From Eledone cirrhosa (Eukaryota): 64,000 nt of DNA. The position numbers and the translations under genes are program-made. The stretch covers positions 29,326,001 to 29,390,000 of the forward strand of contig OZ024740.1 in the NCBI GenBank assembly GCA_964016885.1, read 5' to 3'. This document shows, one piece after another, positions 44,052 to 46,399 of this stretch (positions are counted from its first letter, which is position 1; the number at the start of each line of letters is the position of its first letter). A model generated the notes under the pieces. That model saw only the letters and a program-made list of their open reading frames with translations, was not told the origin of the DNA and made no database searches.

Positions 44052-44730
44052 ATTGTTATACTTTGGGAGGGTCATGTTGCCAATAAGAAACACACGCACC
44101 AGTTGCTTTCACTTCAATTTATTATAATAAATTTATAAATTTAGGAATTTATAAATTTCTGGTTGGTTGGTTGGTTGGTTCCACAACCAGATAGTTGTTT
44201 ATATATTGTCAAAGTTCTTTCGTCACACATTCTGTCACCTCTTCAGTGACTGGGGATTCTTTTCTTTGTTTTTGTGCCTCTCCTTTGTTCTGTCCTACGC
44301 CATTTTGTTTCTGTGTGTGTGTTGTGTGCTCAGTCTACGCATGCGCCACATCCGGGTGTCTGTGTGTGTTTATATTCGTTTATTTATTTATTTGTTTCTT
44401 TACATGTTACCGGTTGGTTGTTTGTTCTATGTGCGTGTGTGTTTTCATTTTGTCCTTAATTGTAAGTTGTGATGTTGCTGTTCCACTCATATTTTCTATT
44501 TAATTTTGGTTGTAATTCTTTTATGTTTATTGCCTCTGTGATTTGTCTAAACATTGCGTCTTTTCTGTGTGTAGATTCTATTTTTATTTCTATGTTCTCT
44601 AATTTACCCTTATGTTTTATTTTAGCATGTTGGTAGAGTACAGATGATTTTTTACTATCTTGAAGGTCTCGCCAGTGTTCATTTATCCATTCCCCTACAC
44701 TACGAGCTGTCTCACCTATGTACACTATAT
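44052..44730 (-). mobile_element. PLE family B 3' fragment (GIY-YIG C-half plus pLTR, HHR at 44208-44250)
   Basis: VYIGETARS...EAINIKELQPKLNRKYEW; terminus in (TA)n at 44051. Confidence 0.9.
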
Positions 44731-44757
44731 TGCAAACTTGACTGTCACCACATATTA

Positions 44758-44796
44758 TGAACCTGAAGATTGCGAAAGCATGAAAGTACTTGTTCA
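44758..44796 (+). ncRNA. Compact 39-nt hammerhead ribozyme (family F)
   Basis: tgaac CTGAAGA t tgc GAAA gca t GAAA GTAC TT^ gttca: 5-bp stem I, GNRA-capped stem II, palindromic AAGTACTT stem III. Confidence 0.85.
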
Positions 44797-46399
44797 ATTA
44801 ACACTTAGAATTTAATATTCTATCATACTATTTCATTATAATACCATTATAAATTTTAAAGGATTGTAAATAAAACGAGTAAATCAGACAAAGTTGGAAT
44901 TCCTCTTATTAATATAATCTTCTATACACAATCATACACACTCGTGTATATTTATCTATCTATATATATATATATATATATATATATATATATATATATA
45001 TAAAGAAAAAGAGATGAAATCGAAAATGCAACTGAAGTCTTATTTAAAAAAAATATATATATATTTATTTGGTTCCTTTACCGGTTTCGCAGTTCTTCTG
45101 CTTTTCAAAAGGTGAGTTGAGATGGAGGGTCTGTGGTTTTTATATATATATATATATATATATATATATATATATATATATATATATATATATATATATA
45201 TATATATATATATATATATATAAAACATGAGAAGAAAGAAGAATACTGCGTGGTTGAATATGGATTACATATGATAAAAATAGTCCTTCGTCAGTGATTT
45301 TCCAACCATCATTGGTATTTCATCGCATTAAAAATCATATACCTCAGGTTGGAGCGAGCAATAACTAAAAAAAGTTATTGGGACCAGTAAATCGCGTAAA
45401 GCGAGTGAGACAAGTAAACAACATAGAAGGATAAAAGCAAACCAAAGATAGGAAAAAAAACAAGCAACATGGTTGTCCGGTCAGCATAAACTGGGTGGAT
45501 TTCATGAGCGAGAGGTACAGACCGTCCGCGTGAGTGAGATGTAAGCAAGAAGAGAACCCACACAGGCCAAACTGGAGGAAGTGAGAAGGGGAGAAACAGA
45601 GAGTCAGTGAGTGGAAGTGCGAGGAAGAGGTCAGTCGAGAGAAAGTGTAACTGACAGAGGGGGCGAAAGAAGATATATTGTTATGCTTTTGGGTTGGGTC
45701 AATTCAGAAACGAAATATATATATATATATATATACACACGCACACATATATATATATACAGTATATATACGACATTCGTCTTCCTGCTCTCTCGTTTTA
45801 TATCCTCTACTATCTTTCCTTTTCTCTCTCTTTCTCTCCTTCTCTCCTCCCTCTCCCCCACCATCTCTCTCTCACTCTTCCCCTCTCTCTCACTCTTTGA
45901 GTATATATATATATATATGTATGTATGCATGAAGTAAACGGAAACAACGAAGCAATGAACGTGTGTGAGTATGTGTGTATATGAGTGTATATATATCTCT
46001 GTGTGTCTGTGCCTTTGTGTGTGTGTGTGTATATTTGTGTATGTGTATGTATGAGTGTATATATAAATGTGTGTGTGTATATGTGTGTGTGTGTGTGCCT
46101 TGTGTGTGTGTGTGTGTGTGTATGTGTATGTATGCGTGTATATATCTATATATATATATGTGCGTGTGTGTGTCTATGTGTGTGTGTGTGTGCCTTCTGT
46201 GTGTGTTTATTTGTGTATGTGTATGTATGAGTGTATATATCTATATATATGTGTGTGTGTCTATGTGTGTGTGTGTGTGTATAGGTGTGTTGAGACCAAT
46301 ATAAGATATGACACATCATTGGTGTGAAGACAGTGTTGACCAAGCTGCTCCAATTCCCCAGTCAGGTCACTGGTGTTGTACTAGTATAATCATAGTGAA

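Follow-up and report, generated by a model that had tools for sequence, protein, structure and literature searches.

The locus studied here raises the question of how the 3' ends of two unrelated Penelope-like elements (PLEs) come to be fused head to head, through three shared bases and with no TA sequence between them. It lies in a microsatellite-rich window of 64,000 nucleotides from Eledone cirrhosa (G000:C1:29326001-29390000; genome size, 3.0 Gb), the window being the whole stretch of DNA analysed and the frame for all positions given below unless a locus is named. The initial annotation described a minus-strand copy of family B that stops inside its GIY-YIG region at about 44730, followed by some 230 bp of unrelated sequence with a hammerhead at 44758-44796 and a (TA)n end at about 44960. 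Both parts of this description hold, and the hammerhead lies at exactly these coordinates.

Structure of the junction

The junction is real, and each of the two fused 3' ends is complete up to its own TA run. On the left, an interrupted (TA)n run (43828-44052), at which the B arm would have been primed, borders a family B 3' fragment on the minus strand (44053-44731). This fragment is 5'-truncated within the endonuclease, of which it keeps the C-terminal part from the YIG half to the stop codon (44456-44731, minus strand; reading ...IVYIGETARS...ITTYN*). It carries the family's short 3' end, without the 57-59-nt tail, and includes a putative hammerhead-like motif in the B pLTR (44208-44252, minus strand; CUGAAGA ... 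GAAA, a motif match only). The B half aligns to four other long copies of the same repeat in the window. The B copies compared (3 others in the window and 39 other full-length genome matches that were scored) stop aligning at 44729-44732, all of them diverging from the window sequence after 44731.

The trinucleotide ATT at 44729-44731 is common to both families and forms the microhomology of the junction. Beyond it extends the 3' pLTR of family T on the plus strand (44729-44960), which has the family's long 3' end; its 44-nt tail (44917-44960) occupies the interval between the short and long ends (positions 186 and 230 of the query, where the arms stop). The pLTR contains a minimal type I hammerhead motif with a palindromic helix III (44758-44796, plus strand), predicted to cut after 44791 and to need a dimer for this. 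The T half begins 10 nt downstream of its family's usual 5' stop, and the combination of a short B end with a long T end gives the junction a short-plus-long polarity. Across the (TA)n run on the right (44961-45002), T meets, tail to tail, part of a third TA-terminated family (45003-45140); this fragment has TA on its other side too. When up to two mismatches are allowed, a 35-mer across the junction still has a single genomic match.

The sequence at 44731-44960 had been proposed to be the 3' pLTR of another PLE, and the genome copies bear this out: all 40 that were scored, out of 130 candidates, match nearly the whole length of the query at 93-100% identity, and the longer ones extend upstream into an open reading frame with reverse transcriptase (RT) and GIY-YIG domains, T being an autonomous family. 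The B and T proteins are 22.5% identical over 471 columns, and their DNA matches are confined to simple repeats. This lack of DNA homology, together with the single-copy junction, rules out T as an inverted part of a B element. Self-foldback is likewise rejected for this junction, as the initial annotation had argued, since the halves represent two families without DNA homology.

Families B and T are endonuclease-bearing PLEs

Both families encode an RT followed by a C-terminal GIY-YIG endonuclease, as expected of endonuclease-bearing PLEs. In Pfam searches, the T protein matched RVT_1 with an E-value of 2.6e-6 (27.7 bits, under the 29.6 cut-off) and GIY-YIG with 24.4 bits, and a longer B protein matched RVT_1 with an E-value of 6e-4 (under the cut-off) and GIY-YIG with 22.7 bits against a cut-off of 22.6; the window's B fragment on its own (44456-44731) yielded no Pfam match. 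Read by eye, the endonuclease-bearing type is also apparent from LIYCIKCPNCEELYVG in T and VVYSIRCTEGQCRNKNIVYIG in B, each with downstream histidines. Upstream of the GIY-YIG domain, both carry the CX2-5CxxC linker (CNDSRCGTC in T and CIDKKCITC in B), which, according to the part of PMC8557442 that also defines the CCHH motif, is missing from Penelope and Poseidon. The CCHH motif is likewise found in both B and T, whereas the Hydra clade is recognised by its absence. Thus, by motif rather than by RT phylogeny, the two families are Neptune/Nematis-like and not Hydra-like.

In agreement with the PLE layout, pLTRs occur in tandem, as in the T units of about 4.19 kb in L219, or inverted, and may have a tail; the long 3' end of T corresponds to an intrinsic (TA)n stretch immediately before the first open reading frame. 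The latter comprises 474 codons (L219:5256-8897; also in L192 and L194), is out of frame with the RT-endonuclease frame and ends at the same place, KQLYT, in L219 and L192. A programmed frameshift is a possible explanation of this offset.

A candidate ribozyme in the T pLTR

The T hammerhead string reads UGAAC CUGAAGA, followed by stem II and then by GAAA GUAC UU GUUCA, and is shared without change by 114 of 178 T copies, the motif being a regular component of the T pLTR. Its monomer folds no better than shuffled sequences (z 0.40), and two copies co-fold into a dimer with a long palindromic helix III. The CUGANGA and GAAA cores, an NUH site, a short helix I and a palindromic helix III are all present. 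The minimal PLE hammerheads in the passages of Cervera and de la Pena (2014; PMC4209133) resemble that of T in having a type I core, a helix I of 5 bp and a tiny palindromic helix III, in their pLTR location and in the predicted dimer. The T motif differs from these in lacking a long helix II with the usual G10.1-C11.1 pair: its helix II consists of 3 bp (UGC/GCA) beneath a U-U mismatch, and we regard it as a candidate ribozyme. Rfam returned no match to the junction or the T hammerhead at E <= 10; for the whole window, the 150 of 213 matches that were listed comprise only microsatellite-driven miRNA-type matches, none of them on the junction.

Same-family pairs combine a short and a long end

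Each family has two fixed 3' ends, short and long, which are separated by a tail of 44 nt in T and 57-59 nt in B. Exact ends are abundant in the genome (T, 2,906 short and 3,024 long; B, 12,137 short and 10,880 long). Two RT start sites have been demonstrated in vitro for an anole PLE (PMC11167929), and the tail corresponds to the stretch between them. In T, the majority of short copies reach a 5' stop some 240 nt upstream of the long end, and this usual 5' stop is likely the 5' end of the RNA.

B and T ends were classified in 342 loci and the window (1.91 Mb), drawn from the first 30 matches of each of four patterns, DNA-search matches and fetched regions. The survey omits about 29 B-long places and some B-short places, and it is enriched for non-self cases, because regions were picked mostly for having no exact-pattern partner listed nearby. 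Where a same-family inverted partner had an assignable type, this was the opposite type for 186 of 200 ends, a figure from automated calls in which one pair can count from both ends. The partner arm was closer than the median other copy in 62/66 T pairs and 27/28 B pairs. The short arm extended further 5' than the long arm in 11/75 T and 26/56 B pairs (a few duplicates remain among these), and the long arm scarcely overlapped the short one in 10 of 131 pairs.

Given the short-plus-long ends and the near-identical arms, same-family pairs fit a single RNA primed at two fixed sites from both sides of a break, and fit this better than either two RNAs or pure foldback. The initial annotation noted that the geometry of the junction matches that of the palindromic pairs; an origin of these palindromes from two RNAs is not supported by the data. 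Self-foldback as the whole origin of the pairs is opposed by the short arms that extend further 5', even if some T copies do have short snap-back pieces at the 5' end.

Several arrangements were seen alongside these pairs. T copies at the usual 5' stop (L024, L073, L144, L299 and L325) bear a 10-30-nt snap-back of their own start, followed by TA. Apparent B solos (L100, L107, L109, L233, L241, L245 and L252) possess tiny second arms, 5-22-nt inverted long-end pieces located between TA and the short arm. Two same-family B pairs in the window have one short and one long end each (8511-9233 and 35416-36877); 10554-11773 and 12283-13473 both represent short ends. Across all loci, 72 clusters contain at least 3 TA-terminated ends, and a pair of fixed ends, separated by a tail of about 28 to 120 nt, is seen in many families.

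Heterologous joins recur without the polarity rule

The initial annotation suggested a count of head-to-head junctions between families, and such junctions do recur: the feature is found repeatedly in the genome, with both end types assignable by hand inspection in 16 joins, including a second B-T join (L309). Six of these have opposite ends, six are short with short and four are long with long (the end assignment of L240 comes from one reference pair, and the partner of L307 was assigned within a family with three ends); L024, L223, L210, L306 and L333 were omitted as the partner's end type is unclear. The short-plus-long rule thus applies to 6/16 heterologous joins versus 186/200 self ends (p 2e-7), which does not depart from chance (p 0.45), and joins without a long retained arm have opposite end types in 5/12 cases. 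Since only 6 of 16 joins share it, the polarity of the window junction is uninformative and may be due to chance; as proof of a single event it was rejected after this survey.

Among the 200 T ends listed, about 8 belong to a direct or near-direct heterologous join. From this frequency, the genome likely holds hundreds of them, enough for an allele-based test. In six three-part joins (L286, L298, L307, L329, L210 and L306), a truncated inverted T arm still separates the intact T arm from the foreign one; the arm retained in L307 contains tail sequence and is thus a former long arm trimmed on its outer side. The partner's palindrome centre is retained in L193 and L223. About 12 inverted arms are cut on the outer side and fused to non-PLE DNA. 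The 5' ends of T and B are also fused, without TA, to same-orientation repeats and to unrelated DNA, and in L358 such a join occurs through 5 nt of microhomology close to the neighbour's 3' end. L071 and L345 are same-orientation chimeras, in which a foreign sense arm continues through its own TA stretch and is followed by T without TA.

T run-off ends fused without TA (n = 20, window excluded) enter an antisense PLE arm in 6 cases, same-orientation repeats in 6 and other DNA in 8, and T breakpoints are grouped no more than 15 nt away from the 5' stop. Beside complete pairs, about 10% of the non-simple sequence is antisense PLE DNA, which is a lower bound because the repeat library is incomplete; six antisense landings out of 20 give p 0.011 against a background of 10% and p 0.067 against 15%. 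An independent sample (60 of 210 pattern matches) yielded 2 head-to-head, 5 same-orientation and 2 other joins, plus L403; from the 100 matches listed for it, 28 reciprocal self matches, 3 already in the survey and 9 unfetched were excluded. Nests are common, 23 of 70 solo copies facing another repeat's 3' end across TA, and head-to-head neighbours that keep a TA spacer account for 3/70.

L403 (G000:C3:162188554-162191588) is a complete B short-plus-long pair with no difference between its arms over 269 nt. At its centre lie about 28 nt from the T 5' start, and the same sequence forms the centre of a T pair located about 1 kb to the left. The T piece starts within 1 nt of the T breakpoint of the window junction, and the first T bases recur as their reverse complement at the start of the right arm, a snap-back. 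On the simplest reading, the end of a nascent B cDNA engaged the centre of an existing T palindrome, and a step of this kind with the T pair across the break would give the window junction.

Private changes were used to compare the ages of the joined halves. At the window junction, they number 4/676 in B and 0/218 in T (Fisher p 0.58), both halves being young. In L251, the halves are unequal, with an old B half (6/200) and a young partner (0/200). Age matching between halves is underpowered, with rho of 0.21 for 11 heterologous joins, 0.35 for 70 self pairs and -0.09 for 95 neighbours.

Origin of the junction

The reading that we favour, with about an even chance of being correct, is that one PLE inserted at a (TA)n run beside a resident copy of the other, with deletion of the intervening DNA. 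The endonuclease of the newcomer would cut a TA run inside a PLE nest, one cut end would prime reverse transcription, and the 3' end of the cDNA would be joined by microhomology into the older neighbour. Presumably, B was the newcomer: its cDNA, started from the left at the short site, would have landed in an existing T pair, at the centre or the 5' start, and eliminated the inverted arm of that pair. The opposite succession, in which a run-off T cDNA landed in an older B copy, is equally compatible with the sequence. Such sequential insertion is suggested by the loss of the short-plus-long rule across heterologous joins (6/16 versus 186/200), by the truncated same-family inverted arm retained in three-part joins, by the T and B 5' ends that enter same-orientation repeats or other DNA without TA (e.g., L358), by the T 5' start captured at the centre of the B pair in L403, by the unequal ages of the L251 halves and by the nests around 23/70 solo copies. 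It also agrees with microhomology joining without target duplication, as known from the passages on a rotifer PLE (PMC3846280) and on truncated L1 (PMC11702581). Several observations stand against it. Antisense landings (6/20) exceed the background of about 10%, both halves in the window are young and short-plus-long polarity is present there, and an encounter between a B cDNA and a T cDNA is another possible reading of L403. The rarity of head-to-head neighbours with a TA spacer means that simple trimming of a solo copy would give too few cases, and missing polarity would also be expected from two independent RNAs.

The initial annotation took the junction to support two RNAs reverse-transcribed from one break, the left (TA)n end being extended on a B RNA from the short site and the right one on a T RNA from the long site, with the cDNAs joined by 3 bases. 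The heterologous joins without the short-plus-long rule, the palindrome remnants and the unequal ages in L251 mean that the junction does not establish this, and we retain the idea only as a tentative one. It would account for the excess of head-to-head landings, the T start within the run-off zone and the equal youth of the two window halves; in vitro, both strands are cut and extended by a PLE protein for which a dimer is predicted (PMC11167929), and the same outcome is reported for two opposite-orientation L1 transcripts (PMC11702581, section 7), with synchronous L1 bridges reported in bioRxiv 2024.08.27.596794. However, arms from different templates are rare within families; the partner arm being closer than the median other copy in 62/66 T and 27/28 B pairs, a second RNA is seldom recruited even when it suits the machinery. 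Three-part joins would need extra steps, same-orientation landings outnumber head-to-head ones in the independent sample (5 versus 2), and the rotifer passages of PMC3846280 report no cross-mobilisation between PLE types. That RNPs of unrelated PLE families with a common (TA)n target each extend one end of the same break, microhomology then joining the cDNAs, is conceivable but less likely than not. If true, a few percent of insertions would be two-family events, PLE integration would be double-ended, and the short-plus-long rule would reflect two primers competing on one RNA. Alternatively, a B pair and a T pair could have been inserted separately in a TA nest and both inner arms lost through a later microhomology-mediated deletion. 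The inverted arms cut on the outer side and fused to non-PLE DNA (about 12) are what such deletions would leave, and random polarity, as in the survey, is predicted; but neither the clustering of T breakpoints within 15 nt of the 5' stop nor the antisense landing excess is explained, and the extreme youth of both window halves leaves little time, so that we consider this improbable. An assembly chimera between two repeats is more improbable still. The junction is known from the assembly, and a 50-nt junction probe recovered 17 contigs in one run and 0 records in three, with no contig or read bridging it; yet these four runs are filtered contigs or RAD libraries, which give no test of the junction or its alleles, and 15 comparable junctions elsewhere have their end types intact.

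Relation to known insertions

The same-family inverted pLTR layout with a one-sided tail is already known from the passages of PMC8557442 and PMC3846280. The insertions of this type in these sources and in PMC11167929, the relevant passages of all three describing same-family inversions only, likewise have 5'-truncated arms pointing apart, a one-sided tail, a (TA)n target, a pLTR hammerhead and central microhomology. The B/T junction departs from the canonical single-event inverted insertion in that its arms come from unrelated families instead of being near-identical members of one; one short and one tailed end are present here, possibly by chance, as the short-plus-long rule is lost across such joins (6/16). 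The origin of inverted arms and one-sided tails in PLEs, for which antisense self-priming has been proposed (PMC3846280), is an open question on which the survey numbers bear.

Among L1 insertions, as treated in parts of PMC11702581, twin priming on one RNA is the analogue of the same-family PLE pairs, and two-transcript insertions in opposite orientation consist, like the B/T junction, of two reverse-transcribed segments whose 5' ends meet at a microhomology. The latter arise de novo with two evident templates, whereas here the neighbours may predate the event; moreover, the B/T junction involves two element families and priming at fixed internal sites rather than at poly(A). Microhomology-mediated target-site deletion, covered for L1 in PMC11702581 and for the PLE Pen2_Av in PMC3846280, similarly leaves a 5'-truncated end with a few common bases, lost target DNA and no visible duplication. 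In contrast to those cases, the deleted target here would be a palindromic PLE insertion, with breakpoints clustered near its centre. Literature searches, outside whose coverage lie most subscription journals and supplements, found no paper on cross-family head-to-head PLE joins, and a paper on repeat annotation (PMC13282606) contributes nothing further.

A single B/T junction proves little and makes no new element. The chimerisation of PLE families envisaged by the initial annotation is not what it yields: the product is a single-copy pair of 3' ends pointing apart, with no new chimeric family. If sequential insertion is correct, PLE nests at TA runs are places in which incoming copies remove parts of older ones and fuse them. 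The window also contains large inverted pairs from other families, at 14418-19507 (arms 98.6% identical) and 20270-23020 (97.8%), as are tandem arrays at 51400-51970 (48-bp unit, 11.9 copies) and, with a short period, at the window end (61642-64000).
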